A stretch of 64,000 nt of DNA, from positions 248,001 to 312,000 of the forward strand of contig JBODTK010000127.1 in the NCBI GenBank assembly GCA_050613775.1. Reading direction: 5' to 3'. Below are positions 1 through 54,909 of the stretch, in pieces. The notes below the pieces were generated by a model, which was not told the origin of the DNA, ran no database searches, and worked only from the letters and a program-made list of their open reading frames with translations. Every line of letters starts with the position of its first letter. Position 1 is the first letter of the stretch. The position numbers and the translations under genes were made by a program. Source of the stretch: Neocallimastix sp. 'constans' (taxonomy: Eukaryota).

Positions 1-583
1 AAAATTTTATATTCAAAAGAAAAAAAAATTTATTCTTTATTACACTATATTAATAAATAATAATATTATTGATTATCTATATATAATCCTATAATATTAT
101 TATTCTTCCCTTTTTTATTTTTTTTATAACTTTATTTTATTTTTTTTTATAAAATTTTTCTTCCCCCTTTTCCAAAAAAAAAAAAAAAAATATTTTTTTT
201 TCTATTTGTATATTATTTTTTTTATTATATATATAATGTTTATAATTTATTTTTAAGAACATATTTCATATTTTTAAATAATTTTATATACTTTAATTAC
301 ATATTAATTAAAAATAATAATTTTATACTTTAAATATAACTTAGAAATTTTTAACTATTTAATTTACTATTTACAATAATAATAATAATAATATTATTTT
401 TTTTTTTTTTATAACTAGAAATATAATTTAATTTAATAATTTAATTGTTTGTTGATAAAATTTTATTAATTTGTTTGCTTTAGATTGTTTTAATTAAAAC
501 CTAAATAATTTTTTTTTTTTTAATTAATTAATTTCTTTCCGAAAATTTTAGGAATTTCATATTTTTCTGAACACAACGTTCCA
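1..583 (-). repeat. 3' LTR of Gypsy element 1 (truncated by window edge)
   Basis: Matches 5375-5963; identity ends at AACGTTCCA (583); adjacent to the polypurine tract. Confidence 0.9.
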
Positions 584-636
584 AGACGTCCCCCTCTAGA
601 AGAAGGCTTCGTCCCTTGAAGTCCACGTTAATCAGC

Positions 637-773
637 TATAATCTAGAAAAATAGGGGATAACGTTCTTTAAATGAACATTCCTTTCCGCAATTTCTCCTG
701 AAATGGGATCACAAACTGTAATTGTATTAAACTCCTTCTTGACTATTTTTAGCGGTCCAGTGAAATATGGATC
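637..773 (-). pseudogene. Integrase C-terminus (GPY/F-like region)
   Basis: Minus strand reads DPYFTGPLKIVKKEFNTITVCDPISGEIAERNVHLKNVIPYFSRL*, homologous to the end of the integrase at 11704-12441. Confidence 0.85.
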
Positions 774-1864
774 TCTTCTCAGGCTACCACCAAGTACCGA
801 TGTACACAGAAGACCAAGATATAACTTGCTTTACGACGCTCTATGGAAATTATAATTTCAAAGTCATGCCCTTCGGATTGTGTAACGCACCTGCGACCTT
901 CCAAAGGGAGATGAATAGAATTTTCTTCGACCTAATTGGAGAATGTGTTTTTATCTATATTGATGATTTAGTAGTATTTTCGCCCTCTTATGAACAACAC
1001 ATTAGGGATCTTGCAAACGTTTTCACTGTACTTTAAGAAAACGGATTAAAATTAAATTTAGAAAAATGTCATTTCTTCCAAGAGGAAGTGGAACTGCTAG
1101 GCCATATCCTATCTACTAAAGGTATTAAGCCTATACCAGAGAAGGTAAAGACAATTTTTCATTGGCTTCCCCCGAATAATGTATCTAAGCTTCATTCATT
1201 TTTAGGAGCGGTGGGATACTACCGGAAGCTTATTAAGGACTTCGCCCAAATCGCAAACCCTCTCTTTAAACTGTTAAAGAAAAATTCAACGTTCGAGTGG
1301 ACTTCGGAAGCCGACTTAGCTTTTAAGACTTTGAAGGAACGATTAGTACAAACTCCAATCTTGGTACCACCTGATTTTGGTAAGCCATTCATTATAAGGA
1401 ATGATGCCTCTCGGAGTGGAATAGGAGGTGTCATTATGCAAAAGGATGATAAGGGAGTTGAAAGACCAATCCATTATATCAGTCGAGCGCTTAAGAAAGC
1501 CGAGAACAAATATAGTGTCACTGACTTAGAGGGGACTGCAGCCTTGTATTGCATCAAGAAATTTAAGCATTACATATTAGGGAACAATTTTGGTACTACC
1601 TTGTTAACTGATCACAAGCCATTAGTTGGGATCTGTAATAACACGGAGCCTTCCAATAATCGACATGCAAAGTGGATAACCACATTAAGTGCGCTTCAGG
1701 TTAAAGTTCGATTTGAGGAAGGAAAGAAAAATGTAATTGCGGATGCACTATCTAGGATGGAAACCAAAAATATGATTGTGGAAGAATTGGAGAAAGAGAA
1801 CAACGAAGTGGTATTGATTTCTCAAAATATTGAAGACTTTATTAATCAAAGAATTATAGAGATC
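770..1864 (+). pseudogene. pol fragment: RT core and RNase H (inverted relative to the element)
   Basis: DLFSGYHQ, MPFGLCNAPATFQ, YIDD, DASRSGIGG, TDHKPL, ADALSR; one in-frame stop at 1034-1036. Confidence 0.95.
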
Positions 1865-2595
1865 TTCTCCTGTTTTAGCTTCTCTTAGTTCTTTAAGCCG
1901 CTCTACTTTATTTCTCTGTTTGACTGGTTCTATTCTTTTCTCGGCTAAATACGATAGATCTAAGTGATCCAACCGCGAAGTATTGGAATGGTTATTTTGA
2001 TTTATTGGTTTTTCTTGTTCTTCCAGATTCATTTCTATATCCGCTGTTTCCTGAGATTCTGCCAATCTATTTGGTTGTTCATTACTACTTTTAACTTCCT
2101 TACTTTTCTTATCTTCTTTAACACTTCGGTTTTCTCTCTGGAGTGACACGTTATGTGCCATAGCGGGAGTTGATATTTGGTACTGGATTGATTTTTAAAT
2201 TAGATTCCTTCATAGAGTTTGGCTTGATATAAGGATTAGTTTTCTTCATCTTAAGAGTAGCTTTCTTCACTGCAGGGATAGCGGCTTCCTTGTTAGATGT
2301 TGTAGTGCTTTGAACTTGGTCAAAGGACTCCCGATTAGTGGATAATATAGTGGTTTGGTTACTGGAAGTTTTCCTTCTCCCAATTCCTAATTTAAAAGTC
2401 CCTTTTCTTCCATCTCAGCTAATATTCCTTAAAGGAGTATGGACATTCTGGTGACTTATGACCGAGTTGTTTGCATCTAAAACACCTAATGGCTTTAGCT
2501 TTCCTAGAAGATGCGTCTGTTACTTTCTGATCATTAATAGCCAGAGTCTCCCTTTTTGAAATATTTTTAATAAGATTATTCTTATTTTCTGGATC
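1861..2595 (-). pseudogene. Displaced gag C-terminal fragment with CCHC zinc knuckle
   Basis: CFRCKQLGHKSPEC on the minus strand; bounded by GATC at both ends; interrupts the RNase H-integrase frame. Confidence 0.85.
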
Positions 2596-3562
2596 GATGA
2601 GGAAAATTTTTATAAAAAAAACGGAAGATTTAGAAAGATAGTTAAAGATGAAAAAGAGAGGTTTCAACTAATAGAAATTGCTCATGCAGTTGGGCACGAG
2701 GGAATATATAAAACTTATCATAGATTGAAACCCAACTACTATTGGAAAGGAATGAACAGAGACATAAGACTGTATATTAAATGTTGCCCCAAATGACAGA
2801 TGTATAAAAAACAAAAACAAAATGAGAACGTAGAAAATCTACCAACAAAACCAGGATATCCATTCTCCAGAGTCGGGCTAGATACTGTCGGGCAGTTACC
2901 AAGAACAAGAACCGGAAATAAGTACATAATAGTCTTGGTAAACTATTTAACTAAATGGGTTGAGGCCGAACCTTTGAAGGAAATTGGTTCAAATGATGTG
3001 GTGAAATTTTTAAAGAAAGTCTTTGCTCGACATGGTGTTCCTGAGCTGTTAATAACGGATAATGGACCACAATTTATTTCGGATAAAACTATAGCTTTCC
3101 TTGACCTGCATGATGTGTATGTACATTATGCAACAACTTACTATCCTTCCACCAACGGAGAAGTAGAGAATAGAAATAAGGAAATTATTAAATATCTTAA
3201 ATTATTAGCTAAACAAGAAGATGATTGGGACGAAGTTCTACCTAGTGCTTTATGGGCCTTAAGAACATGTAAGAATGAGAAGACGAAGTTTAGTAGCTTT
3301 GAATTACTATATGGACGTCAGGATTTACAACCGCTGGAATTAACATTAAATAAAGACGGACGAAATGAATATGAAAGTAAGGAAGAATTTTGGCTCCAGA
3401 AGTTTATAAAACATCACAAGTGGATAAGAGAAGCAATAGACAATATTGAAATCGCAAATAAATTATGGAGTGATCGACGCAAACAAATTCGAAGAATGCG
3501 TTCGGAATATAAACCCGGGGATCTTGTTTTAGTTAAGGTCTTTAATAGAAGGAAGCTTGATC
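2592..3562 (+). pseudogene. Integrase HHCC and DDE core (inverted relative to the element)
   Basis: HAVGH...CCPK, GLDTVG, ITDNGPQF, NGEVENRN; ends RRKLD at GATC 3559. Confidence 0.95.
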
Positions 3563-4186
3563 AATTGTAGACAAAACCTGATTCTTACCAATATAACTAA
3601 GAATATCATCAATAAGTGGTAATGAGTATGCATCTTTCTCCGTTAAATCATTAACTCTTCGATAGTCTACACACATTCGGTATTGCCCATTCTTCTTTAA
3701 AACCAAAACTACTGGTGAGGACCAAGGAGAGTGTGATAGTTCTAACAGCCTATTGTTTATCAACTTTTCTAGCTCCTTCTTTAACACAATTACCTGTACC
3801 TTGGATAAACGATAAGCCCTTTGTTTAACGGGAGTAGCTCCTGGCTTTAGGATAATCCTGTGTGGTAGAAGTTTAGTAGGTTTTAAATCATCCGTTTTCA
3901 TTTCTAATACTTCCCAAAAATTTTTAAACAACTTGGTAACCGGATCTTTTACTAGATCTGGTATTAGTTTGATAATTTTCTCCACTCGAGTTTCTTTGGT
4001 ATCTAATGGTTCTTTATTTGTAATACATAAGGATACTGTTATATTTACTTGCTTACTTGCATCTATATCGACTACATCTTGTACTTTGTCGTTCTCTTCG
4101 TCAACACTCGAACGGAGGTCATAATACATAGGTGCAAGCTTTATTGGAAGGTTATTAATGTCTATAGTATTGTAACGTGCTTCTAT
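3559..4186 (-). pseudogene. pol fragment: post-protease linker and RT N-terminus
   Basis: PVKQRAYRLS, SPWSSPVVLV, RMCVDYRRVN; ends ...VLSTID at GATC 3559. Confidence 0.92.
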
Positions 4187-4738
4187 TGTAACGGCGGGAC
4201 GTAGTATAGAAACACAGAAAGGAGAAAACTCAATAGGTTTACACTATCTATATAAATAATTCGTTTTATTAAAAAATATTTTTTATTAATTATAAATTTT
4301 AAAATAATTATTAATATTAATCAACAGGGTAATATTTCGAATTATACGTTAATTATTATTAATAAAAGCACGAAGAAAAATATTTTCATTCGTGAAGTTC
4401 GCACTATTTATACTTTTAACGGAAAAACAGTTTTAACATGTAAAAATAATTTTAAAGAAATATTTAGAAATATGTTTGTAATAATTAATAATGTAAAGTT
4501 TCTAGAATATAGATTTTAATTGATGAAAATGAATCTTATCAAAAAAGAATAAAATAATTTATATAATAAGAATTTCTAAATTCATTTTGGTTGAATTACG
4601 AACCGAAATATTCTTTAACTTTCTATAATTTATACAGAAAGAATATTCACGAAGATATTATTAATAATTAATAAAATAATTATTTATGCAAAATGAGTTG
4701 AGGTGTGAGTCGAACCCATGAAGTATTGGTCATGTTCA
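4187..4738. mobile_element. Solo LTR replacing the gag-protease interval
   Basis: 552-bp AT-rich non-coding block bounded by TGTAAC...GTTCA. Reading frames stop exactly at both edges. Flanks TCTAT and GTAAG are not a TSD. Confidence 0.65.
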
Positions 4739-5221
4739 GTAAGCTTTTTGTAATGTATCTACTTTAGCAATAGAAACCTGGGAACATGGAAAAATCCTAG
4801 TTCTAATGGCCTCCTTATACTCCTTGACTGTTATTAGCTTCTGATAGTCCCTACTAAGATTACGGTATAACTTTTTGTAACGATGGATAAACTGTCTTAG
4901 TGATTCTCCTTCTGTTATAATAAGATTCCTCAGAACTGCCCACTTATCTCCCTCTGTTATCTCTAGATGAGTTTCAACAGCCTTTTGAATTTCAATAAAC
5001 TTAGGATAACGCTCTTCATTATTTTTTTTTGTAGCCAAAGCACGGATTACATCCTTGACATCGTCCTCCACTGCGGCCAATACCCAAGTGAATACTTTCC
5101 TTGGTTCCGTTATATCATAGAGGAGTAGGTATTCTTTTAAGTCCTCTACCCATTCTAGAACATTCTTCTTATAATCTTCCAAACGTGGAAGATCTCTCTT
5201 AATCTTGGCGGCGTCTAACAT
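4739..5221 (-). pseudogene. gag N-terminal part of Gypsy element 1
   Basis: ORF MLDAAKIKRDLP... starts downstream of the PBS and is cut at the solo LTR boundary. Confidence 0.75.
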
Positions 5222-5325
5222 AGGTAGCTTAAAGTTTTTTTTTTTTTTTTTTTGTTTTTATTTGTATATTATTATTATTATATATATTTTTCTTTTAATT
5301 TTCATAAAATTTTACAGAACACTCT

Positions 5326-5341
5326 CCCGGATTCTCCACCA
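5326..5341 (-). promoter_or_regulatory. Primer binding site, probably tRNA-Ala
   Basis: TGGTGGAGAATCCGGG lies just inside the 5' LTR and is complementary to a tRNA 3' end ...CTCCACCA. The tRNA identity is inferred. Confidence 0.7.
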
Positions 5342-5348
5342 AAAAGTT

Positions 5349-5963
5349 TGGGACGTAATGTTCTTATAAATTATAAAATTTTATATTCAAAAGAAAAAAA
5401 AATTTATTCTTTATTACACTATATTAATAAATAATAATATTATTGATTATCTATATATAATCCTATAATATTATTATTCTTCCCTTTTTTATTTTTTTTT
5501 TATAACTTTATTTTATTTTTTTTTATAAAATTTTTCTTCCCCCTTTTCCAAAAAAAAAAAAAATTTTTTTTTCTATTTATATATTATTTTTTTATATATA
5601 TATATATAATGTTTATAATTTATTTTTAAGAACATATTTCATATTTTTAAATAATTTTATATACTTTAATTACATATTAATTAAAAATAATAATTTTATA
5701 CTTTAAATATAACTTAGAAATTTTTAACTATTTAATTTACTATTTACAATAATAATAATAATAATAATAATTTTTTTTTTTTTTTTTTTTAGAGCTAGAA
5801 ATATAATTTAATTTAATAATTTAATTGTTTGTTGATAAAATTTTATTAATTTGTTTGCTTTAGATTGTTTTAATTAAAACCTAAATAATTTTTTTTTTTT
5901 TAATTAATTAATTTCTTTCCGAAAATTTTAGGAATTTCATATTTTTCTGAACGCAACGTTCCA
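5349..5963 (-). repeat. 5' LTR of Gypsy element 1
   Basis: Termini TGGGACGT...ACGTTCCA form an imperfect 8-bp inverted repeat; 7 nt from the PBS. Confidence 0.88.
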
Positions 5964-7033: not shown

Positions 7034-8369
7034 AATATATTATAGATATTTTATTATTAAATAAAATAAATAAATTTAAAATCAAATTAATTTGATAATT
7101 CTAATTATCAAAGTTTATTATAAATAAAATTTTATTAAACTAAACATTTAAATATTTATTATTATTATTATATATTTATATAGTATATTACTATATAGAC
7201 ATATCGACTTAGTGAATATTTTTAATAAAACATATTATTTTATTTAAATTTAAACTATAAATTATATCAAAATCTTAACATAATCTAAAAACTTATTTTT
7301 CTTCTTCTCTTTTTATCCAATTTATGGTACTGTAACGAATCTTAATAATAATTAACTTGTCTTAGTTGTTAGTAACTAAGTCACTGATTTGAACTTCTCG
7401 AGTTTAAACCCGCATAACTTCTTTTTATAAAAAATTTATTTTAAAAGTTCTTATCTTATCAAAAAAATTTTTTTATCTTATCAAAAGTTTTATCAAATTA
7501 TTTTAATTGGTTTAAATTTACATCATAAAAAATTCTTTTTGAAAATTTTTTGTATAAATAAGAGTGAATTTTTCTTCAAAAGAATTTTTTAAAAATGTTT
7601 TTTTTATTGTAACGTGAATTCGGGGCGTAACCCAAAATAATTAACACCACTAGGTTTGTATAAAAAAATGAATAATAAGTAAATAGTTTTTTAATAAAAA
7701 AGAATTTATTATTTTTTAAAAGTTAAAATTTTTTTTTTATTATTTATTTATTAGTTATTAATTAAAAATTTGTAATTAAATTACTTATTAAATAATTAAT
7801 AAAAAACACAATTTTTTAAAAATTCTTTTGAAGAAAAATTCACTCGTATTTATACAAAAAATTTTCAAAAGGAATTTTTTTATGATGTAAATTTAAACCA
7901 ATTAAAATAATTTGATAAAACTTTTGATAAGATAAAAAAAATTTTTTGATAAGATAAGAACTTTTAAAATAAATTTTTTATAAAAAGAAGTTATGCGGGT
8001 TTAAACTCGAGAAGTTCAAATCAGTGACTTAGTTACTAACAACTAAGACAAGTTAATTATTATTAAGATTCGTTACAGTACCATAAATTGGATAAAAAGA
8101 GAAGAAGAAAAATAAGTTTTTAGATTATGTTAAGATTTTGATATAATTTATAGTTTAAATTTAAATAAAATAATATGTTTTATTAAAAATATTCACTAAG
8201 TCGATATGTCTATATAGTAATATACTATATAGATATATAATAATAATAATAAATATTTAAATGTTTAATAAAATTTTATTTATAATAAACTTTGATAATT
8301 AGAATTATCAAATTAATTTGATTTTAAATTTATTTATTTTATTTAATAATAAAATATCTATAATATATT
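7034..8369. repeat. Long inverted repeat (arms about 7034-7608 and 7798-8369)
   Basis: About 570-bp arms that are reverse complements with a few substitutions and indels; spacer about 190 bp. Confidence 0.92.
7608..8077. mobile_element. Solo LTR
   Basis: TGTAACG...CGTTACA termini, non-coding; start resembles the LTR at 4187. Confidence 0.65.
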
Positions 8370-8839
8370 ACTATTAAGGTAATTTTACAATAACCTTACA
8401 AAGAACATAAAAGAGAGATTTTTACATCTTTCTTTTATACTTTGTAAGTTACATAATAATAATATTTAATTATAAGATATTAATAATATAGTAATATAAA
8501 TAATAATAAAATATAAGGATAAATTTAATTATATAATTAATTTGAATAATTGAATTTAATATAGATATGTTGTAAACATATATAAAAACATAATATAAAT
8601 AGAATACACGTGACGTCAAATGTATCATTGAAATTAATTATTAATATAAACCTTATTTATTAATATTCTCAGAATTATTAGGCCTAAGATAACTCTTTAA
8701 ATATTAAACAAGAATTTATATTAATTATTAATTATTTAAATATATATATTATTTATAATTAAATAAATAATATTTTTAATTATTGAAATGTAAATAACTG
8801 AAATTGAGATTTCAATTCAGTTATTATTTCAACAGATTA

Positions 8840-11800
8840 TGCAGATTCCTTAACCAATAATCCTGACGCATGGAGAAAGGTTATGCTTAAAGACCATTTT
8901 TCTATTACCAAAGTAATCACTATAGCTGAAAAAGTTGATCGTTTATCTATTAAAAATAGTATTGAATATTATGATAAGACTGGTTACAATTTCCTTAACT
9001 CTAAAAGTAATTTTAAGAAGAACATTTCAAATGATTTTAACAAACCAAAAACCCACAAAAATATATCAATAGAAAATCTCACTAACAAGATGAAAGAAAT
9101 GAAAATTAGTACTTGCTGGTTTTGTAGTAATGAAGGACATACTAAACGAAACTGTCCTAAATTAAATTCTATATTGGAAAATAACAGCAAGAAGTATTAT
9201 GAAAAACACTTAAACCACTAAAAGGGAGTAGAATCACTCCCATCGTCAAAAAAAATTGCTTCAGTCTGCCATCGTCCTATAACAGTTGACTTAAAAGAAG
9301 ATGATGATTATTAAGAAACTGCTGACTTCCAAGAAGGTACTACTATGGATTATTATGAATATTTTGATAATGAGTCAGATGGTTCGAAAGAATTGGATTA
9401 CTTAGTAAACGTTATAAAGAGAAAAGCAAATCATAAAGATGAAGAGACTAGTAACTAAAGAGGAAAGAGGGTTCACCGTAGTTTAAGAGATGATCCTAAG
9501 CCAATAGTTACTCTAGGTTTACAAAAATAAAATAAAAAGGAAATCAATTAAGGGGAACATCGCGACCAGTCAAAAAGCCAACAACTCAATTACATCCTTC
9601 GATTATGGCTCAACCCAGAATAGAGAAAGAAAAGATAATTGAGAAAGAGCAAAGAGATAAGGAAAGAGCTAGTACTAGTACTTCTGTGGAAAATAATAAA
9701 AATAGTAATATAAATATTATTAATGAAGAAACTTCTCAAGAAGGGAATAATTCTAAACAAACCTTAAATAAATTGATTTAAGAAAAATCATCAGAAAAGT
9801 CAATTGAAATTAAACCAACTAGAATCTCAAGAAGAATACAAATGCAAACTGATTGTGATAGTTATGACGTGATCAAAGATTTAAACTCAAGTAATTGCAA
9901 TATTACATTAGGACAATTATTGGACGTTGCTCCAAAGATATGGTCTCAAGTATCTCAAGGACTTAAATTAGAAAAGAATAATACTAAAATTTCAAGTGCA
10001 GCTGATAATATGTGCACTACTACAATAATAACGAACAATATAGATCATATACATATATAAGTAAACATCATGAACCACAAGAAGATGACATTACTATGGT
10101 TGATGTAATAGTAGATGGAGTTCGTGGTAAGGCTTTAATAAATTCATGTAGCAACTTAAATATTATCACAAAACAATTTTTAGATAAATTACCTTATCAG
10201 AATGAGCCTATAGGAGTTAGTGCAGGACGAATACGTTTAGCAACGATGAATGATGATTACTCAGAATAATTGTTAATCAAAGTTTCCAGTAAAAATTAAT
10301 GAACTAGAACTACTTGCTACGTGTAGAATTATAGATAGGGAGGATCCATTCTATGACATATTAATCAATCTCAATACTCAAATTAATAACCAGTTATTTA
10401 TACATCCAATTAGATATAGTCATTGGAAAACAAAGTTAAAGCTATTAAAGAATGGAATGTTCCCTCTAACATTAATGAACTTCGATCATTTTTAGGAGCC
10501 ATTGGATATTATAGAAATTTCATTAAGAACTTGGCAAAAGTTACTGCTTCCCTCTGTTCATTATTAAGAAAAGGTGTTAAGTTTGAATAGAAAAAGGAAC
10601 AAGAAGAAAGTTTTAAAATTCTTAAGGAAAGATTAATCAATGACCCAATATTAAGATTTCCAAGATTTTCATGTTTCATTATTTGAACCTTACTATGAAA
10701 ACGAATTTAAAGATAGGAGAAATTGCAAAAGAAAAAATATACGTTTAACAACTGATTATGAAGAAAAAATTCTGGAAAGAATTAACGACATGAAGAGATT
10801 TAATGGAAAGAACTTTTACCTTGTTTCTTTGATTTATAAAATAATAAATAAAGTAAATAAATCATATGAACTAAATTTTTGAATTATATTCCTTAAGCCA
10901 CAAGACAAACTTTTAATGTAACAATTTTCGTAAAAAATTAATTCTGAGAAAATTATTGTTTTACAATAATTTAAATGAATTGATTAAAGTTTAAAACAAA
11001 ATAAATTAATAATTTATTTTGTGAAAATTAAGTTTCAAAATTTAATCATGACTCTTTTAACATTGTTTTTAAATTGAAAATAAATAAAGATTTTACTTAT
11101 AATATTAAAATAATAAATATATAATAAATATACTTAATTTAAATTATTTAGTATTTAGTTTAATTAATAAATATTTTTTTTTTAAATTTAGCTATAGTTT
11201 ATAAATTTATTATTTAATTAAATTCATTAGGATAGTTTTATATTAAAATATATGTAATTTAAATAAAATAATATATTATCAATGTATTTAGGAAAAGTAT
11301 AAATAGAAGATATATTAATAATTATATAATATTAAGAAAAAATATTTTTAATAAAAAATTTTAATAAAATAAAAACTTATTGTGTTGTTATTGTAATCTA
11401 TTTTGGTGTTTCTTTTACAGATGGTGATTCTCTTTGAAAAATAATCTCAGATGAGCATGAAAAGTTTCAATTGATTCTGAAGCAACACCAGGTGGGACAT
11501 GAAGGTTGGACTAAGACTTATGAGCGTTTAAAGAAGTCTGTTTATTGGAAGAACGTGACGACGGATGTTAAGAGATTAATAGAAAAATGCTAAACTTGTA
11601 AATTAAATAGAAGTATGAAATACCCTGAGCCTCTTGAACGCTATCCAACAGCAATACAAGATCCGTTCACTCATGTTGGACTTGATATTATTGAACTAAG
11701 TGGGTGGAAGCAGAGCCACTTAGTTCCATTACCTCTCAAGATGTGGTAAATTTTTTAATTATTAAGGTATTCTCTAGACATGGTGCTCAGGAAATCATAA

Positions 11801-12944
11801 CTACGGATAATGGAGTCCAATTTACTTCAGACTTTACTAAAATTTTTCGAGATCTTTATGATGTGTACGTAAAGTTTACAAATACATACCATCACGAATC
11901 CAATGGCCTCACAGAAAATAGGAACAAGAAATTAAGTAAGTATTTAAGGCTTTTAGGAAAAGAAAATGAAGATTGGGACCAAATACTACCTGTGGCATTA
12001 TGGGCCTTAAGAACTGCAAAGAACACTACTACCAAACATTCAAGCTTTGAACTTCTGTATGGACGCCTTGACCATCAACCTTTTGAGTTGTTGATTACAA
12101 GAAATGTTACTCCTACAACTAATAAATCCCAGGATGAAATTCTTATAGAAAAATTTGTGGATCATTATAAGTGGATTAAGGAAACTTGTGAAAATGTTAA
12201 GAATGCAAACGAATATTGGGCCACAAGAAGAAGCGAAAAGAATTCTATGAATGAAACCAAGAACATGAGACCAGGTGATAAGGTATATGTGAGGAACTTT
12301 TCAAGAACTAAGCTACAATCATATTTTGTGGGCTCCTTTGAAGTAGTAAAAATTCAATTTAATGCAGCCACCTTATCAGATCCTAATACTAGTGAGCTGG
12401 TGAAAAGGAATATACATTTTAAAAATTTAATAAAAGAATAACTTGTCTAAAGCCAAGTTTTTAAGGAGGACATCTTGTTAAGGAATGGAAATAAAAACAT
12501 AATTCAAAGTGAATTTTTATTTTTATTCTTATAACCTTTTGTAATATATTTTATTTACTATTAATAAAGTTAATAATTAGTATTATATTCCTTTATTCTT
12601 TATTTGTATATATCAAACTTTGTTTATAGTTTAAATTAATTTAGTTTACTTTAATTTTAATTATAGTTAGTTTTAGTCATATTATTAAGATAAATTTATT
12701 TTTTTATTTCTTAAAATAAACATTATGATTATTTTATTATTAAAAATAATTCTTATTATATTTTTATAATAAAAATATTATATTTCCGATAGTTAATTAA
12801 ATAGTTTAATTATAAAAATTATTATAAAAATAAGTAATTTTTCCTTGTAAAGTAATTATCGAAAAATCATAATTAATTATTAATAAAGAAAATCAAAATA
12901 AAATAAAACATTATATATATATATAAGTAATTATTATTTTTACA
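8840..12944 (+). mobile_element. Degenerate Ty3/Gypsy element 2 (gag, protease, RT/RH remnant, integrase, PPT, 3' LTR)
   Basis: Zinc knuckle CWFCSNEGHTKRNC (8883-9221); degenerate protease motif [20 protein letters not shown] near 10480; integrase 11420-12441; PPT AAGGAGGA then TGTTA at 12476. The LTR right end is uncertain. Confidence 0.85.
10667..11419 (+). mobile_element. Nested chromovirus-type 3' fragment plus LTR
   Basis: FHVSLFEPY followed by a chromodomain-like start (ERINDMKRFNGKNFYLVS); then a TGTAAC...TTTACA block at 10917-11419, after which element 2 resumes. Confidence 0.6.
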
Positions 12945-32628: not shown

Positions 32629-32803
32629 ATAAAAAGAATTGTATTCTCTTTATTTTTAAAATTATTAGTATTATATTTATTAAATATAATATAATATACC
32701 ACTTAAAAAATATTTTTTTTAAGAAAAAAAAATTAAATTTTTAAGAAACTCACTAATAAAGATTTTATATTATTATTATAATATAAAATATTAACTAAAA
32801 AAA

Positions 32804-35593
32804 ATGGCAAAAGGAAAGTATTCTTCAAAGTTTGGCAATGTAACTGCTGAACTTTTTAATGATTATTATGAAGATACCAATGCTGTTATTAGAAGGAAAA
32901 TTACTAATAATGCAAATTCTCAAGCTAAGAGCAATGGTGTAAATACCAAACAAAAAAAAGTATTAAAGAAAGAAAGTAATGAAACAAGTAAGAAGGTTAT
33001 TACTAATGCCTTAAAACAAACCGCTAGTTTTCTTAATAACCAAAAATTGTATCAACAAGAATTCCCAACTCTTGGACAATCATATAAATCTACTGTTCAA
33101 AAGCCACAACAACAAATTAAACAAAAGCAACAACAATTAAAGAAGCAACCTCAAAAAATTGATAGTAAATCAATTGCTCCCAGAACATATAGATCCCCAG
33201 CAAATTACACTACAAAACAAACTGAAGAACTTCTTCGTGAATTTTACTCACTCTGCAAAAGTTATGATGGAATGACATACTTCGGTAAAGCTGCTTTCCA
33301 AACAAATTCATGGTCAAAGAATCGTTTAGGACAGTGGGTTAATTCTTGTTCTATCATTTCATCAAGAAATGCTCCAGTTGTACGTAAAATGCAACGTCAA
33401 GCTCCAGTTAAGAAACAACCAATTAAGCAAGTACAACAAGCTCCAGTTAAGAAGCAACCAGTTAAACAATTAAGTAAACAATCAGAAGCTAATTTAATTC
33501 GTGAATTTAATAATATTTGCCAATGCTTCGATGGAATGAATTATTTCGGAAAATCTTCTTTCCAAAAGAATTCATGGTCAAAGAACCGTTCAGGACAGTG
33601 GGTTAATTCTTGTTCTATCATTTCATCAAGAAATGCTCCAGTTGTACGTAAAATGCAACGTCAAGCTCCAGTTAAGAAACAACCAATTAAGCAAGTACAA
33701 CAAGCTCCAGTTAAGAAGCAACCAGTTAAACAATTAAGTAAACAATCAGAAGCTAATTTAATTCGTGAATTTAATAATATTTGCCAATGCTTCGATGGAA
33801 TGAATTATTTCGGAAAATCTTCTTTCCAAAAGAATTCATGGTCAAAGAACCGTTTAGGACAATGGGTTAATTCTTGTTCTATCATTTCATCAAGAAATGC
33901 TCCAGTTGTACGTAAAATGCAACGTCAAGCTCCAGTTAAGAAACAACCAATTAAACAAGTACAACAAGCTCCAGTTAAGAAACAATCAGTTCAACAAAGA
34001 AAAATGAAAATGCAAAATCATAGTATGAAACCAATTATAAACAGTTCAATTACAAAGGAACAACAACAAATGAACCAGAAGTGTATTGTTGCACAGCAAA
34101 ATGCTTCTATGAAATTAAAAAACAAGATCCTTAAACAATTCAGAGAAAAGCAAGAACAGTTAGAAAAAAAAAAGAAAATTGAAGAACAACAAAAAATAAA
34201 GAGACAACAACAAATGAAAATTCAACAAAAAAACACTGAAAGAAAATTGAAACAACAATCAATAAAACAAACAGTTAAGCAACCATCAAGTATTAAGAAG
34301 CAACAAATGCAAAAAGAAAAAATAAGAGTTCAAAAAGCTCTTAAGAATAATGAAAGGACAAATGTTTCAAAAAGAAACACTAGAAGACAATCTGATATGA
34401 CCAGAAGTCAAGAAAAGAAAATTCGTAAGAAGCAGAACTTAATTAGAGCTATTAATAAAAGAATTAGTGAATTAAACGCTGAAAAGAATGAAAACAAAAT
34501 CTTCAATAAAATGGTTAAGCAAAAGACTGAACATATATTAAGACAAAAACAAAAAATTGAAATGCAAAATAAAATTTCAGTTGCTAAAGAACAATCTCAA
34601 TCAAAATTGCGTGAAAAAGAAGCTTATGATAATCAACAAAAACGTATCCAAAGAAAGCTTGCTAAGCAAAAGAAACAGATAAGAAATAAGGTTAATCAAA
34701 ATTCAAGTTTAGAAGCTCAAAAAAAGAGACAATTAGCTGAATTAAAGAACAAATTAACACCAGAACAATACAGTAAGATTCAAAACATTATGCAGCAAAA
34801 AGGTAATCAATCAAAGGAACAAAATGCCAGGCAATTACAATCTGAACAAGCAAAGAAGAGCTGGCAAGAACAAGTTAAAAAGATGAAGGCTAGACAACAA
34901 GATATTCAACAAAAACAACAAAAACAAAATTTAGTAAAGAGAAGATTCGAAAGTATTAAGAGAAAATTAACACCCAAACAACAAGAAAATTTAATGAAAC
35001 AACTCAAAATGAAAGAACAACAAAAGAAAGATGAATTCAAGAACCATCAACCAAGAGCTAACAACAACAAAGGATTTGTTAAGAAACAAAATATTCAAAA
35101 ACAAATTACAAAGCAACAACCAATTAGACAAATGAAACAATCTATTAACAAGAAGCAAATGACAAAGAAGACTGAAATTTGGACATTTGTCAGTAACAAA
35201 AAAAATACAAAGACACAAATGCCAGTACAAAAGCAAATTAAGAAAACTGTTCAAAAGCAAGTTCAACAAAAAGCTAATAAAGGTACAAAGAGTACCATTA
35301 ACACTAGACCAATAAATTCTTCAGAAATTAAAATCTTCAACAATGAATTTGCTGATTTGTGTAACATGTTTGAAATCTCTAAATACTTAACCTACTCTAA
35401 CTATAAGACCTGGAGCAAGAATAAGTCTGGAAAGTACGTTTCTAATGCTTCTGTTATTGCTGCTAGAAACGCCCCAAGAATGACAAGGGGTTTATCTAAG
35501 CAAATGAACTTCAGTAAAAACAATACTAAGAAGACTCAAAATGCCAAACCCCAACAAGTCAGAAACAACAAGAATAATAAATCCAGATTTTAA
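32804..35593 (+). CDS. Uncharacterised 929-aa basic Gln/Lys-rich protein with four copies of an approximately 55-aa aromatic/Cys motif
   Basis: 2.8-kb uninterrupted ORF, A-rich start context, coding-like composition, internal 264-bp tandem repeats. Confidence 0.9.
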   Translation: MAKGKYSSKFGNVTAELFNDYYEDTNAVIRRKITNNANSQAKSNGVNTKQKKVLKKESNETSKKVITNALKQTASFLNNQKLYQQEFPTLGQSYKSTVQKPQQQIKQKQQQLKKQPQKIDSKSIAPRTYRSPANYTTKQTEELLREFYSLCKSYDGMTYFGKAAFQTNSWSKNRLGQWVNSCSIISSRNAPVVRKMQRQAPVKKQPIKQVQQAPVKKQPVKQLSKQSEANLIREFNNICQCFDGMNYFGKSSFQKNSWSKNRSGQWVNSCSIISSRNAPVVRKMQRQAPVKKQPIKQVQQAPVKKQPVKQLSKQSEANLIREFNNICQCFDGMNYFGKSSFQKNSWSKNRLGQWVNSCSIISSRNAPVVRKMQRQAPVKKQPIKQVQQAPVKKQSVQQRKMKMQNHSMKPIINSSITKEQQQMNQKCIVAQQNASMKLKNKILKQFREKQEQLEKKKKIEEQQKIKRQQQMKIQQKNTERKLKQQSIKQTVKQPSSIKKQQMQKEKIRVQKALKNNERTNVSKRNTRRQSDMTRSQEKKIRKKQNLIRAINKRISELNAEKNENKIFNKMVKQKTEHILRQKQKIEMQNKISVAKEQSQSKLREKEAYDNQQKRIQRKLAKQKKQIRNKVNQNSSLEAQKKRQLAELKNKLTPEQYSKIQNIMQQKGNQSKEQNARQLQSEQAKKSWQEQVKKMKARQQDIQQKQQKQNLVKRRFESIKRKLTPKQQENLMKQLKMKEQQKKDEFKNHQPRANNNKGFVKKQNIQKQITKQQPIRQMKQSINKKQMTKKTEIWTFVSNKKNTKTQMPVQKQIKKTVQKQVQQKANKGTKSTINTRPINSSEIKIFNNEFADLCNMFEISKYLTYSNYKTWSKNKSGKYVSNASVIAARNAPRMTRGLSKQMNFSKNNTKKTQNAKPQQVRNNKNNKSRF

Positions 35594-39639: not shown

Positions 39640-40941
39640 TTATGGAAAATATATTTCAACAAGGTTCTCACTGTTATGGAACATCTATTGACAGCATAAG
39701 ATTGATTTTTATCCGTAGTATATACTCATGGACCAATTCTAAAATGAAGGAATTTATTTATTCAAGATGCAAAAAATAAAATAATAAAGCTCCTAGCCCC
39801 GATGATATTACGATTGAATTTTTTAAAGCCTTCTTTAGTGAATCTGATTTATCCGATAATCAAAACGATTCTTCAGATGTTCACTACTCTGATTGTGCTA
39901 AATGTTAACTTTCATTATTTAAAAAAGTCTGAGATGGTGATTTCCCTGAAAAGTGAAATTCGGCTTCTATAATATAAATTCCAAAAAAAGGAGATCTTTC
40001 AGATTGTAATAATTATCGAGGTATTTCTCTTATTAATGTAGGCTTAAAAATCATTTCAAAAATTGTTACTAATAGAATTGCTAAATATGCTTTAGACCAT
40101 AAATTTGTTAGACCTGAACAATTTGGATTTAGAAATAAGGAAGAATGTATAAGTTTTTATATTTCAATTAAGGAAATATGTCACATTATTCATAGACTAA
40201 AGAATTAAAGACTTTAGATAAGAAATTAAATAGTAAAAAAACAAGTGAAATAATAAAGATTTATTGGGAAAGAGATGTCTTCAAACCCTCAAAAGCTAAA
40301 AAAGCAATTATTTACAAAGAGAATGATTTTGGATTTATTTCAAAAATCAAAGACTTAATATTTCAATATCCTAAGTATCATTTAGGATTCTTGTAGATTT
40401 CTCGAATTAGGTGTGGTTTTAAATTTGACATTAGTATTTCCATTAAAAGAAAAATAGTCTCAGAAGATTGCCCTAAATGTTGCCCATGTTATGGTGGTTG
40501 TGGTGTTAGTGTACCTAACTTTTCTCACTGGATCTTTGCCTGTAAAGAATTAGAAAATTACAGAAACAAATCTCTACCATTTCTAGATGATCTCTTTTTG
40601 AAGTTTTCAATGATAATTGAACAAAAATCCTTGGATGTTTCTTTAGATTCAGAAAATGATTATGATAATAATATTCATCACTTTATATTGAGTACTCTTC
40701 TTGGTGGGCGTTCAATATATGAAAAAATTAAACTTAATGAAGGGGAACAAAGACAATTAGTTGACAATATTTTTAAATAAAGTTCAACTTTGTCGACTGT
40801 TCCGTATTTTGTGGGGATTGCGGAGTTTCTAACAAATGTAATATCGTTAATTTGTTGATCTCTTATATTGATGATGAAATGGTATTTCGATGAATCTAAC
40901 GTTGCTAAGAGCGTCGACATCAAAATGATAAGGTATGGATC
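39640..40941 (+). mobile_element. Degenerate non-LTR (LINE) retrotransposon ORF2 fragment
   Basis: NKAPSPDDI, IPKKGDLSDCNNYRGISLIN, EQFGFR; internal deletion; C-terminal CPKCCPC...HWIFAC. Confidence 0.9.
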
Positions 40942-41432
40942 CAAAATAACAAGAAATATAAATAAAAAAAAAATACCTCCAGACGTAACAACATTTAATA
41001 CAATTCCGAATGAATCAGAATAGTATAAAACAGAAAGTAATGAAAATTTTATGATATTCAAAAATTCTAATATTAGTATTTTTTAGTCATCAATCCAAGC
41101 AAAATTATTTATATAATACAATATAAATATTTTTGCAGATGGTACATTTAAAATTGCATCAAAATGTGTTTATCAAGCGTTCATTACTAGAACTTATGTT
41201 AAGGAATTAAATAGTTTTACACAATTTCCTTTTCGATATTAAAAACTAAAGAACAAAGAACTTATGAAGTATTATTTGAATAAATAATGAAAAATTCCAA
41301 AATGAATAATAATATTATAATTACACCAAAAATTTTCATTGTGGTTTTGAAAAAGGTATATCTATGTTGCTAAAAAAGTGTTTCCTGATATAAATATCAA
41401 ATACCGTACTTGGCTTTATAAAAGAGCGTTAG

Positions 41433-41486
<54 letters not shown>

Positions 41487-42587
41487 AAATAAAATATGTC
41501 GTAAAGAAGTAGAAAATAATATTGATTTATATATTCATTATAAGTTTATTTCAAACTTTCCTTTTATAAACCCTGAATATATAAATGATATTTATAATAA
41601 ATTAAAATGAGTTTCTTAAACATAAATATAATAATTTTTTGGAATTTTTAGAACACTTTGAAATAACTTATTTAAAAGATTATGAAATTAAACATTGGAA
41701 TTATTATGATAATATTGAGCATGTAACAAATAATGCCTCAGAATCATTCAACAATTATTTAAACAATTTATTTCCAAAAAAGCCACATTTTTATAAATTT
41801 TTATTAACTTTACAAAAAGTAGATTCATTATTCAGTGACGATTATAAAATGAGAAAAAGTGAAGCTTGGGAAAAAAAAAAAAAAAAAAAAACCTAAAAAA
41901 AAATAAGACGAACTGATGAAATAAATGCAATGAATGCCTTAATTAAATATTACAAAAATATGGAAATTTCATTAAAAAAAGAAAAAAGAAAAAGAAATGA
42001 AATCGTTGAATTTTAATTGAAGTGTTTAAGAGATTTAAGCATTAAAATTATTAATTAAAAAATAAATAACTAGTATTTAACGAAAAAATGACCAAATGAA
42101 AATGATCAATAAAATTTGTCGAATTATAATTAATTAATAGTTAAAATAGTTCTTAATAAAAAAACCAGTGAATTGGATTTTTTAATTAACAACATAATTG
42201 TTTAATAATTTTAATATTTTTATATAAATAGGAATTTAAATATACATTATTATCTTAAAAGAAATAATAATATATTTTTTCAATTATATATTATTAAATA
42301 ATTATTTCAAAAGAAATTTATAATATATTTTTACAATTAATTATACGAACGTGTTGCAACTCTCCCGATTATTTTTAATATTTAATTATAAAAAATATAT
42401 TTATAATACTTATTTAATAATCAATATTATTTTAATACTATATATTTTTTTTAATATTTACTTTAAGAAAAAGAATAAATAAAATAAATATTATTAATAA
42501 TTTATTTTATTTATTTCTTCATAATAATTTTCAATTGCTGAAATTCAACATTATAATAATACGCCACTTGGCGAAATGCACCACTCC
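40938..42587 (+). mobile_element. 5'-truncated Mutator-like element (transposase pseudogene plus right TIR)
   Basis: FADGTF and TNNASESFN motifs; homologous to 44702-46136; ends GGCGAAATGCACCACTCC. Confidence 0.85.
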
Positions 42588-44110: not shown

Positions 44111-44701
44111 AAAAAAATTATAATAATTATTTTATATATATTGGAATCTTATATATTTTAATTTTTTTTCATTTATTTTTCTTAAAAAAAAAAATTAGTT
44201 ATAATAACGTTTGTCTTTTAATTATTATATTTTATTATAGTAAATAAAAAAATTTAAATGAAAAGTAAATAATTTTAATTATTTATAATTCATATTTTCA
44301 TAAACGATATATATATTTATATTAATTTAAATAATATAAGATTTAAAAATTAAAACAATAAGAGTTGAATAATTGATCCTATTAAAATAATTAATTATTT
44401 GCATAGTAATATTTATAATGTTTGATCAATATGAATCAATTATTATTAAAATATAATAATAACAATTAGAATTTTAATAAAATAATAAAAATCTTTTATT
44501 GAATTTAATAATTTTAATAACATAATTAATTTTGAAAAGTATATTGATATTAATAAAATTTTAACTAGTATCAAATAAATCGGTTTTAGTTATAAATTAC
44601 TTATTAAAAATAACTAAAGATAATTTCTATTAAGATTATTAAATAAACACAATAGGTAAATAAATTTGTGTTTTTCTAGCATTTTTTTAAATTAAGATTA
44701 T

Positions 44702-46136
44702 TTATTTTAAATTAATATTTATATCGTTTAAATCAATTAAACATTCTTTCCATAATTTAATTAATTCATTTCTGTTGCATCCATTATAAAATAAATTTAT
44801 TTCCTTACTTTTGTAATTTTCAATTAAAATTTTAATTTCATCAGTTGCACTAAATATTTTTTGCTTTTTTTTCCAATTTCCTTTAGTTCTCCTTTGATAA
44901 TCATTATAAGATAAGTTTTCTTCTTCTTTTAATATATATATTAATTTATAAAATAAAGGTTTATTTGGAAATATATTATTTAAGTAGCTATTATAAGATT
45001 CTGATGCATTGTTTGTTAAATACTCTATATTTTTATAATAATTCCAATTATTAACATTTTACTTTAGTAAATAATTTTTATTAAAATATTCTAAAAATTG
45101 CAGAAAATTATTATACTTTTTTTTGACAAATTCTTTTTATTATAATATAAATATCAAATATATAGTTAGGGTTTATAAACGGTAAGTTCGAAATAGCTTT
45201 ATAATAAATATATACATCATTATTATTCTTCACTTCATGATAACATAATATATTTTTTTGTTTTTCTAATGATCTTTTGTAATGCCAAACACAATATTTA
45301 ATATTTATATTGGGAAAAACTTTTTTTGCGGCATTAGATATACCTTGTTCAAAATCACAATGAAAATTAATTGTAGTAATTAATGTATTACTCCTAAATT
45401 TATTTGCATTTTTTTTTATTTCTTTAAATAATGTTTCATATGTATATTGTTTTTTACTTTTTAATATAGAAATGGAAGTAGTGTAAAACATATTAAATTC
45501 CCCAACATAAGTTCTTGTTATAAATAACTGATAACTAAATTTCGGTGCTGCATAAAATGTACCGTCCGCAAATATATTTTTATGATAATTCGAAAATAAA
45601 TATGCTTGGAATGGTGATTGAAAGATTATTAGATCAGTATTTTTAAATATCATAAAATTTTCATTTCTTTTCGTTTTATAATATTCTGATTCAATGGGAA
45701 TATCATCAAAACATTTTATGTTTGGAGGAAATTGTTTATTTATATTTCTTATTATTTGGGATCTAATTGTACTATATTCGGGATATATAAGTCCCATTTC
45801 TTGAGAAACAGCATTAAATATATGTTTAGGTTTTATATCCATAGGAATTGAATTTTTTTTAATTTCTTCCTTAATTTTATGCTCTGCTACTGATATAGAC
45901 ACATCAATTTCTTTTTCGAGATGGTTATGTAAACTTTCATATTTTAAAACCTCCTTTTTATCATTTAAAATAATTAAAGATTTACATTTATTTAAAGTCT
46001 TATATTCAGTGCATCTATAAATTTTTGATTTATCTTTCCTTTGTATTGAAATATTAAATTTGTGTTTTTTATTAATAATAATTCGTTCATTTCCTCGATT
46101 TGTTTCACTCATTTCAATTTCTATATTGTCTTCCAT
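44702..46136 (-). pseudogene. MULE transposase with a frameshift near 45120 and a stop near 45060
   Basis: YRC...C...HNH N-terminal zinc region, ADGTF, HCDFE, CVWH, TNNASESYN. Confidence 0.9.
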
Positions 46137-48348
46137 TAATAATTAAAATTTTTCAATAAAATATTTTAATAAATATACTCTTAAATGCTTTGAAACTTTT
46201 TTTTTTTTTTAATATTTAAAATAATAAACCTTTTTTTAATTAATTATATAATTATTTAAATAATTATTTAATTATTAATTATTTATTATTTCTTTATTTA
46301 CTATTTTATTTATTTATTTTTATTTTTATTTTTTATTTTTTATTTTATTTTATTTTTTTTATTTTTTAATGCTTAAAAAATAAATTTTTATTTATTTTTA
46401 TTTTATTTTTTAATGTTTAAAAAAGAAGTTTTCTTATTTCTTATTTTTTTTATTTTATTTTTTAAGCATTAAAAAATAAAATGTTTATTTATTTTTATTT
46501 TATTTTTCAATGTTTAAAAAAAAAGTTTTCTTATTTCTTATTTCTATTTTATTTTTTAAGCATTAAAAATTAAAATGTTTATTTATTTTTTATTTTATTT
46601 TTCAATGTTAAATAGAAATACCTAACCTAATTATTATTTATTGAAGTGTTGTATTTCGCCAAAAGTTGAATTTCGTCCAGTTGAATTTCGTCAAATTCTT
46701 GGTGGCTTATATATTTACGTCATAAAATATCACCATATTTATTATTCACGCCATATTGTGAATATATGGCTTTTTAAAAATTGTAGAAAAAAGCCACAAA
46801 TTATGATACAATTAGATATACGCCCCATGTAAGATTACGTGTTTGAAAATTTTTGAGAATTGTAATTTTATTTATTTATTTAATTAATTATTATTCATTA
46901 AATTTTTAATAAAATTAAGTGGCTTAAAATTAAAAAATATTTAAGCCATACAATAAAATACAAATTTTTGTAATAAAAATTTTCGAAATGCACACTCCCC
47001 CATGTAGAGTAATGAAAAACAAGCCACATATAAAAATACGCTACATTGCAAAATGGGGAGAGTTGCATTTCCCCAAATTGCATTTCGCCAGGTTGCATTT
47101 CCCCAAATGGCGTAGTATTAAAATGTTGCATTTCCCCAAGTTGCTTTTCGCCAGGTTGCATTTCGACTAGTAGAGTATTGATATAAATAAATGAATAAAT
47201 AAATAAATATTAATTCAAAATATATTTTTTTTAAAATTGTTTTTATGCGATATTAATAATAATTAATTTTATTTATTGATTTATTTATTTATTTAATAAT
47301 TTTCAATTTGGCGAAATGCAACTTGGCGAAATGCCACATTTTTTTAATACGCCACATGCTTTCAAAAAAATTGGCGAAACGCAACATGGCGAAATGTCCC
47401 ACACCCAAATGCATGATCCCCATACTTTAATAATAAAATATAACCCTTTAATTTTAAAACCTAATCATATAATTGATAAATAAAAAAAATTTTTTTTTCT
47501 TTACTTTGTATTAAGTAAATGTTAATTAAAAATTTAAACTAAAAGTACTAGTTTTATAACCTTCCCTTAAACAAAGTATTATTAAAGACTTTGTTCGCAA
47601 AATTATTTACTTGATTTTAACATCATTTTATTATTTTTTTCTAATATTTTAGTTTATATATAAACAAAAAGTAACAAATGTTTATTTAAGATTTCTCATT
47701 TATTAAAATAGAATTAATTAAATTTTTATGTGTTTTTTTAAATTATTTTAAATTAATAATTTGATTATATATTTTTTGGTTTTAAATTTTATTATTATTA
47801 TATATTATTATTATTGTAAAATAAAAATAATAAATGTTTTATACATAGAAATATACTTTACTATAAAAGTTTTTTTTTTTTTATTATTAAATTATCTTTT
47901 CATTTTATTTTATTTTATAGTATTAACAAAATTGACTAAAAATATATATATATATATATATCTTATTATTATTATTATTATTTTTATTTATTATTGTTTT
48001 TTTTTTTTATTTTTTTTAGTTTAAATATAAATAAAAAGTAACAAAAGTTTATTGAAGATTTCTCATTTATTAAAACGGATAAATCAAAAATTTATTTCTT
48101 TTTAAATAACTTTAAAATAATTTATCAAAGTTTTGATTTTATTATTTACTATTATTGATTATTATATATTTTTTGGTTGTTATATTATAAACAAAATGAA
48201 ATCATCTTATTTGAATTTTCAAGAATATATATTTTAATTTCAATCTATTTTCATATCAAAAAAGAAGAAGAAAATATTTAGAATTATATCCATAAAAGCT
48301 TTTAAATATAATATTTTCATGTAAAATAAATTTAAATAAATTGATAGG

Positions 48349-48641
48349 TGTTAAATTGGCCAGCACACTCAACGGCAATATGACACTACTTAGTAATATT
48401 TATTATTAGTTTAATATTTTATTTATTTATTTAATATTTTATTTATTTATTTAATATTTTATTTATTTATTTAATATTTTATTTATTTATTTTTCAACTC
48501 AGAATTTTTAATTTTAAATCTTTTCATTAATTATATAGAAAATTTATTTACATTAATTTTTACATAAAATTATAATTATATCATAATGTACAGTATTTTA
48601 CCATAAAACTTTAACATTCCCCCTACATTACGCATTATTAT

Positions 48642-48681
<40 letters not shown>

Positions 48682-53676: not shown

Positions 53677-54240
53677 TTTTAATATAATAAAATATTTATT
53701 TTAATTATTTATGTTTTAATTATATATTTTAATTATAATAATAATTATTAAGAAAAATATATCTTATTTTTTTTATAATTAATATCAATATTTGTTTTAT
53801 GTTTTATCGATTGTTAATTGATAATTTATTTTATTTTATTATATTTTATTTTTATTTTTATTTTTATTTTATTTTATTTTATTTAATTTTATTTAATTTA
53901 TTAAGTAAATTAACTATAAAAAATTGGATAATAAAAATATAAATAAATAAAATAATAATTATTAAAAATAAAATATTTTTAGATTTTATTTTATTTATAG
54001 TACATTAAATATTATGTATTTATTAATTACATCAAATATTATGAAATTTAATAAAATTTTTGATTAAATTTATCCAATATATTTATTGTTAATTCATTAA
54101 AATATATAAATATATACATATTTTTCAATATGCCTTTTTATTTTATTTTATTTTATTTTTTTTTTTTGCTTAATAATTTCTTTAAATTAATACAAAAAAT
54201 TATTTTCGAAAAAATTTAACCAAAAAAAAAAAAAAGAAGA

Positions 54241-54909
54241 ATGAGATTTAAAAATTTAATTTTATTAACTGTGGGTTTAACTTCAGCACTTTCTACGGCA
54301 ATCATTACACCATCAGGCATTGAGGTTCCAAACACACTATTGAAATATTTAACTTGTCCAATTGGTGATGTTATTTGTAAAAATGGACAAGATAGTATTT
54401 GTTCTGAAAACTATAATATATGTCAACAAAGCAATCCAAATATATTAGATGAATTACTAACTAAAAATGGACATAAAAAAGGAAACTTCACACCAAATGA
54501 ATATTGTAAAATTCATTTAGAAGTTTGTAAAATGATTATGAACTATGATCCTCCATTAACAAAGGATTATATTTACAATTTAGATCAATATTTGACTTGT
54601 GGAAAGGATGATTCTATTTGTCAATATGGCAAAAGTAATAGTTGTAGAGAAGTTCTTAAATTATGTTGGGGAAATTATCCAAAAGATGCTTGTATAAAAT
54701 TATCAGACACATGCAAAAAAATTAATAGTAATAGCAATATAACAAATATAACTACTAATAATACTTCATCCTACAAACAAGCATTAAAAAAAACAATAAA
54801 AAATGAAGTTAAAAAAGTAGACACTAAAAGAAAAACAACAAAAAGGATTTATAAAACTAAAAAAACTTCTAAAAGAGTTGTATTAAAGAAAAACAAAAAG
54901 GATTTATAA
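54241..54909 (+). CDS. Secreted cysteine-rich protein (12 Cys) with Lys-rich tail
   Basis: Signal-peptide-like N-terminus; paralogous to 59324-59860. Confidence 0.85.
   Translation: MRFKNLILLTVGLTSALSTAIITPSGIEVPNTLLKYLTCPIGDVICKNGQDSICSENYNICQQSNPNILDELLTKNGHKKGNFTPNEYCKIHLEVCKMIMNYDPPLTKDYIYNLDQYLTCGKDDSICQYGKSNSCREVLKLCWGNYPKDACIKLSDTCKKINSNSNITNITTNNTSSYKQALKKTIKNEVKKVDTKRKTTKRIYKTKKTSKRVVLKKNKKDL

Follow-up and report, generated by a model that had tools for sequence, protein, structure and literature searches.

A Ty3/Gypsy retrotransposon of a gut fungus rearranged exactly at GATC sites, probably by partial cutting and precise end joining

In eukaryotes, restriction cutting with exact religation is known as an engineering trick. 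For light-activated MagMboI in yeast, the reported cases place GATC at all end-joined translocation breakpoints (five cases in 19 isolates), and neither deletions nor insertions occurred at these breakpoints (PMC11983132). As that account presents it, the approach, known as TAQing or MagTAQing, amounts to partial digestion inside a living fungus with loss-free end joining; it is engineered, and its products are mostly scattered translocations, conversions and aneuploidy. A natural route for a GATC cutter into a eukaryotic cell is described for viruses that infect eukaryotes and carry GATC restriction enzymes, namely CviAI of PBCV-1 and, probably, mel_015 in melbournevirus (PMC7253447), the latter as part of a mel_015/mel_016 system (PMC7253447, PMC7019647). 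Where these sources deal with the enzymes, those of chloroviruses are presumed to degrade host DNA in lytic infection, melbournevirus infection is stated not to have degraded it, and no heritable religation scar is described. Among the papers listed by our searches of the open-access literature and bioRxiv, there was no natural, inherited restriction-religation scar in a eukaryote.

Chromothripsis also rejoins clustered breaks in shuffled order and orientation. Its breakpoints, however, span far larger regions, show no preference for a single word and as a rule lose sequence. Chimeras from 3C, Pore-C and Sau3AI libraries resemble the locus described here in having joins on a single GATC and a partial-digest pattern. 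Such proximity-ligation joins are unique molecules, whereas the joins here are found again in several samples and years, at one-copy depth.

The locus is one Ty3/Gypsy element on the minus strand, filling bases 1-5963 of the window (the whole 64-kb stretch of Neocallimastix sp. 'constans' DNA that was analysed). Set against the products of TAQing, its scramble is natural, local, multi-fragment and contained within one retrotransposon. The window is AT-rich (GC 9-35% per 2 kb) and holds gene pieces of Uso1, IFT43, Pumilio and L38e; the relatives of its gag that have named sources are from Neocallimastix and Orpinomyces. Composition and relatives both fit an anaerobic gut fungus. In common with Ty3/Gypsy (Metaviridae) elements, it has LTRs, a primer-binding site, gag with a zinc knuckle, reverse transcriptase (RT), RNase H, integrase and a polypurine tract. 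The two LTRs are in direct orientation and, after re-ordering, pol runs RT-RNase H-integrase. It departs from the standard plan in that internal pieces are inverted or displaced at GATC and a high-copy repeat stands in place of protease and middle gag. The features, with the segments lettered, are these:

1..583, minus strand: 3' LTR, with 96.5% blastn identity to 5375-5963; the window begins inside this LTR.
584..773, minus strand: segment D, with the polypurine tract and the C-terminus of integrase (DPYFTGP...); its collinear continuation is the loose end behind 773.
770..773: GATC junction 1, from D to the inverted RT/RNase H; exact 56-nt contig 744-799.
770..1864, plus strand: segment B (1091 bp net), holding the RT C-half and RNase H in the opposite sense to the element; Pfam RVT_1 and RT_RNaseH_2.
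1861..1864: GATC junction 2, from B to the gag/pol fragment; exact 84-nt contig 1835-1918, and a read-through protein on 9 contigs.
1861..2595, minus strand: segment G (731 bp net), a displaced piece with the end of gag, including its zinc knuckle, and the pol N-terminus; Pfam zf-CCHC.
2592..2595: GATC junction 3, from G to integrase; contigs 2366-2647 (X6, X9) and 2393-2647 (X4), and read-through protein P0162.
2592..3562, plus strand: segment C (967 bp net), holding integrase, likewise in the opposite sense to the element; Pfam Integrase_H2C2 and rve.
3559..3562: GATC junction 4, from integrase to the RT N-half; 20 and 7 public contigs carry proteins that read exactly through it.
3559..4170, minus strand: segment A', post-protease linker and RT N-half (...VLSTID), from translation and from proteins P0019-P0021 and P0024-P0026.
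4171..4738: very high-copy TG...CA repeat, occupying the place of the missing middle gag and protease.
4739..5221, minus strand: gag N-terminal 161 codons, 81-86% identical to P0001-P0004.
5324..5341, minus strand: putative primer-binding site, its TGG start just inside the 5' LTR, assigned from its position.
5375..5963, minus strand: 5' LTR, its inner edge probably reaching out to about 5345-5360.

Read in the sense of the element, the present order is LTR, gag N-half, repeat, A', C inverted, G, B inverted, D and LTR. The LTRs differ by 5 substitutions and 16 gap columns in 594, and the scrambled copy carries stops and frameshifts. Segment G keeps the sense of the element (minus strand) and aligns to about residues 270-332 of the gag protein P0002 and to P0006/P0007. 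In other assemblies, the proteins P0019-P0021 and P0024-P0026 have protease joined upstream of segment A'. The repeat at 4171-4738 has a summed depth that rises to about 34,000, where single-copy pieces have about 50, and so exists in hundreds of copies; it is probably the solo LTR of another, dominant family. Its flanks form no duplication and its ends are not GATC. An Rfam search of 4100-5400 gave no match. Among metagenomes, a scan for relatives of the element returned only six distant loci, 31-41% identical, and no close copy; a scan of viral contigs returned no relative, and no virus with a GATC system was found here.

The joins are precise. A sequence-only reading of the window had placed flips of the coding strand on GATC at 770, 1861, 2592 and 3559, and the sequence, the Pfam domains and the strands bear this out: all four visible joins fall on a single GATC. 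The domains lie on the strands it gave for an inverted RT/RNase H and an inverted integrase with a GATC-bounded gag fragment between them, with RT C-half and RNase H on plus (764-1885), zinc knuckle on minus (2422-2667) and integrase on plus (2560-3567). The RT N-half, on minus (3545-4243), had no Pfam match and was read from translation. Rejoining at GATC does restore a continuous pol, as had been proposed. After a script had restored the order of the element, the sequences across the joins were VLSTI-D-LFSGY, RIIEI-D-EENF and NRRKL-D-PYFTG, all in frame, and A'-B-C-D is collinear with the Ty3 pol of L001-L005 (five of the six loci compared). The sequence shared at a join is exactly 4 bp. At 770 and 3559, where the partners of the inversion had been said to share only the palindrome, this holds for both sides; at 1861 and 2592 it holds for the one comparable side.

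A collinear copy of the element, considered further below, allows the joins to be compared on DNA. Its loose ends, ahead of 770 and past 773 and 1864, were compared by eye with the partner segments of the window. Over 30 letters they differ by 1, 1 and 2 substitutions and no gap; these three cuts therefore lost no base. The earlier claim of no base loss at four junctions thus stands for the three joins that can be compared in this way, each with zero loss or gain. At the 3' end of the gag fragment, P0033 continues TGED-QEKDLAERV, and P0029, P0031, P0032, P0034 and P0035 read K-I-K in the +1 frame. Both the former and the frameshifted proteins require GATC, which makes this end a fourth native site. 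The 5' end of the fragment, up to which the relative P0134 aligns, is compatible with a native GATC. Thus, where five cuts had been proposed, three are found on DNA and a fourth from proteins, and the fifth would lie at this 5' end. In this the locus resembles TAQing, with breakpoints on a native palindrome (4/4 joins; 4/5 inferred cut sites) and no loss (3/3 joins).

Sites that escaped mis-joining comprise 9 of the 12 GATC in the re-ordered internal region and 3 more inside the gag fragment, in keeping with the earlier remark on a partial digest (one site placed at about 2530 lies at 2529). By eye, over 8 bases on each side, the cut sites share no motif wider than GATC. The chance of three cuts on GATC is 4e-8 and that of three cuts on any one palindromic 4-mer is 4e-6; under a generous null (reciprocal 4-bp inverted microhomology granted; palindrome plus third cut on the same word) it is 7e-4. 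These are single-locus values, uncorrected for the scan of some 250,000 windows from which the locus came. Judging from site frequency, the fourth native GATC would lower the figures further, roughly 300-fold for 7e-4.

Public sequencing runs hold both arrangements. Nineteen runs contain the stretch or part of it, and seven were examined, all as assembled contigs and not as raw reads. The contig across junction 770 (744-799) is exact in 3 of 4 runs, at depths of 47 (X1), 29.1 (X2) and 11.9 (X8), as is the contig across junction 1861 (1835-1918), at 46.5 (X1), 31 (X2) and 14.9 (X8). The arms of the allele bubble in X1 have depths of 49.1 and 47.5, and the collinear joins in X8 have 12.1 and 13.1. 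We interpret these similar depths to indicate that scrambled and collinear copies are present at about 1:1. Junction 2592 is crossed by contigs in 3 of 4 runs (X4, X6 and X9), with 52 letters on the short side; the X1 piece stops at 2583. This is the only junction to pass the 31-letter bridging bar, since the short side of the 56- and 84-nt contigs is 26+4 letters. The collinear join 1860-2592 is present in 4 of 4 runs (X1, X4, X6 and X9).

Overall, six runs from five samples contain scrambled joins, each at about one-copy depth; X1 and X6 are one sample, which may be the source of the window, and the 2018 runs may represent a single campaign and strain. In X14, which carries another organism label, the pieces shown have the collinear form only, an absence that is weak at its shallow depth of about 7-8, and its alleles resemble those of the collinear copy. 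The scrambled copy has private alleles, for example a stop at 1034-1036. For junction 3559, exact read-through proteins ending RKLDQL and STIDQASFY occur on 20 and 7 JGI/IMG or ENA contigs. These contigs are at most 5095 bases long and hence do not lie on this 64-kb sequence. Among the best 32 of 1064 pieces, no DNA contig crosses 3559 (pieces end at 3551 and start at 3565). Two of six exact look-ups, those of the ORFs 706-852 (across 770) and 1088-1885 (across 1861), gave no match; the latter may have been missed owing to its GTG start. Taken together, the element is rearranged in the organism's own DNA, a real and inherited scramble with zero loss at the three comparable joins.

The collinear copy has peculiarities of its own. 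It carries a 377-bp integrase deletion (window 2755-3131; X1, X4, X6 and X9) flanked by 4 shared letters that are not GATC. Separately, gag N-half 4772-5257 is at one-copy depth, so the collinear copy may lack it. On whether the repeat 4171-4738 is common to both copies the evidence conflicts: contigs running to 4206 suggest it, and the protease-contiguous proteins speak against it. P0020 and P0023 mix alleles of both copies and were treated as assembly mosaics. The copies diverge by about 1-1.5% (counted by eye). Divergence between the LTRs and between the copies is too alike to separate allele from paralogue, or cDNA from chromosome.

The scramble is probably the work of a putative GATC-specific nuclease that cut the element partially, followed by exact end joining. 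About five GATC sites in one copy would have been cut by a candidate nuclease of the MboI, DpnII, Sau3AI or DpnI kind. Compatible ends, either 5' GATC overhangs or blunt GA/TC, would then have been ligated in shuffled order after the partial digest, with 4-5 of some 17 GATC sites presumably mis-joined. The order of the element changed from LTR-gag-[G]-protease-A'-B-C-D-LTR to LTR-gag5'...A'-C(inverted)-G-B(inverted)-D-LTR. Segment G would most simply derive from the same molecule. Its excision would have left a fifth join, later removed when the high-copy repeat replaced middle gag and protease. The substrate may have been unintegrated cDNA or the chromosome. Sticky GATC cuts and blunt GA/TC cuts leave the same join, and enzymes that are blocked by methylation are thus not distinguishable from those directed by it.

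Rumen prokaryotes are a possible source of a GATC nuclease, and anaerobic gut fungi take up bacterial genes. The enzyme could have come from a rumen bacterium or archaeon, from a large DNA virus or from a horizontally acquired gene of the host. Among 5 longer gag homologs and 114 representatives we found no gag-pol fusion of the kind predicted at the lost fifth join, an absence that is weak, and look-ups for native sequence upstream of the gag fragment gave no match. Counting against a nuclease, it takes some local cause to place several cuts in about 4 kb while the host genes alongside stay intact. Given that GATC is not depleted and that neighbouring elements are collinear, we favour a brief exposure to the nuclease over a standing system. 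The sequence-only reading had offered an in vivo GATC nuclease with end joining as a possible defence or rearrangement process; the exact joins sustain the chemistry, whereas a single locus and the lack of GATC depletion do not sustain a general process.

A standing defence is unlikely. It would hold that gut fungi have a GATC nuclease, derived from bacteria or viruses, that cuts unprotected retrotransposon DNA, and that end joining reseals this DNA scrambled with no base lost, which would kill the element. Equally unlikely, as part of that reading, is its proposed target: naked cDNA, or repeats without the ApT 6mA that marks genes. Neocallimastigomycota are reported to be among the phyla with high 6mA (PMC11258239), and such methylation would let a methyl-blocked enzyme spare some genes. 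In the 64-kb window, GATC is over-represented (85 observed against 64 expected, a ratio of 1.33), which is not the site avoidance of a restriction-modification system. Neither of the two neighbouring LTR elements is scrambled: one is a Ty3 remnant (8808-12480), the other a Copia element (48349-53678), and both are collinear. An insensitive search for antisense chimeras among 133 related proteins found only this copy's own P0027, P0028 and P0030. The claim made here covers one locus and probably one strain lineage. If the defence reading were true, this would be the first fossil left by restriction-modification in a eukaryote directed at its own transposons.

It is rather improbable that ordinary microhomology-mediated repair, or template switching by a polymerase or RT, made the joins and that GATC is there by chance, picked out by a very large scan. 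Such repair does occur in this family, as the 377-bp deletion with its 4-bp non-GATC microhomology illustrates, and the scan was indeed large. Yet microhomology repair usually loses or gains bases, and here three sites are reciprocal without loss. The chance remains 7e-4 even when a reciprocal 4-bp inversion is granted, and would fall about 300-fold with the fourth native GATC.

Just as improbable is another staggered cutter, whether topoisomerase II with subunit exchange, a piggyBac-like transposase that excises precisely from a 4-bp site or a site-specific recombinase, of whose ends only those with compatible GATC were rejoined. Fungi encode such enzymes, which leave short overhangs and can rejoin them without loss. 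The joins show no transposon ends, remnants, extended site or inverted motif, however, and a cutter of weak specificity would not return to a single 4-mer for all four or five cuts.

We strongly doubt that cutting and religation of the element took place away from the fungal nucleus, inside a bacterium or free in rumen fluid, and that the product re-entered by homologous recombination through its LTRs or flanks. This route would explain why the shuffling is confined to one stretch of a few kb, and it draws on the uptake of bacterial genes by gut fungi. Against it, digestion, multi-fragment ligation, uptake and replacement would be needed in series, and there is no foreign DNA at any join.

Least probable of all is the earlier suggestion of a library or assembly artefact from Hi-C, Pore-C, 3C or Sau3AI co-ligation, which we consider very unlikely: sticky-end ligation would yield these single-GATC joins with their partial-digest pattern, the runs' library methods are not on record, the 2018 runs are perhaps one campaign seen as contigs only and two junction contigs fall below the 31-letter bar, but random ligation products are one-off molecules that do not recur identically at one-copy depth, whereas these joins recur letter for letter in 2018 and 2024 runs, at about 1:1 with a collinear copy, with private alleles in the scrambled copy and read-through proteins on up to 20 separate contigs.

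If verified, cutting by a GATC-specific nuclease with exact end joining would mean that a nuclease of prokaryotic type had gained access to the DNA of a eukaryote and that this eukaryote survived. Structural variation in rumen fungi would then have a new source, and the bacterial genes that they carry a possible way in. Counting precise rearrangement joins by 4-mer offers a cheap genome-wide test, and the locus warns against taking every GATC join in an assembly for a Hi-C artefact.

Other repeats and genes lie in the rest of the window. Beyond the scrambled element, a 1.3-kb AT-rich inverted repeat at 7034-8369, with arms 91% alike, is possibly foldback or MITE-like. The Ty3/Gypsy remnant at 8808-12480 (plus strand) is older and has RT deletions and an AT-rich insertion; by eye, its breaks are not on GATC. 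The Copia element at 48349-53678 is young, with LTRs 99.3% identical and 4 GATC in its ORFs, and its pol is split by one in-frame stop (50286-50288). Inverted copies of a MULE-type transposase, 70% alike, lie at 40938-42069 and 44698-46142, with MULE and FLYWCH domains in 45114-46142. Their match starts at a GATC (40938/45760) and reflects a paralogous motif rather than a join. A 932-codon ORF at 32795-35590, which had no Pfam match and no usable ESM Atlas match, contains tandem repeats of about 261 bp at 33215-33997. Finally, two small inverted paralogous genes at 54220-54906 (plus strand) and 59327-59863 (minus strand), without a Pfam match, have signal-peptide-like starts and cysteine-rich bodies.
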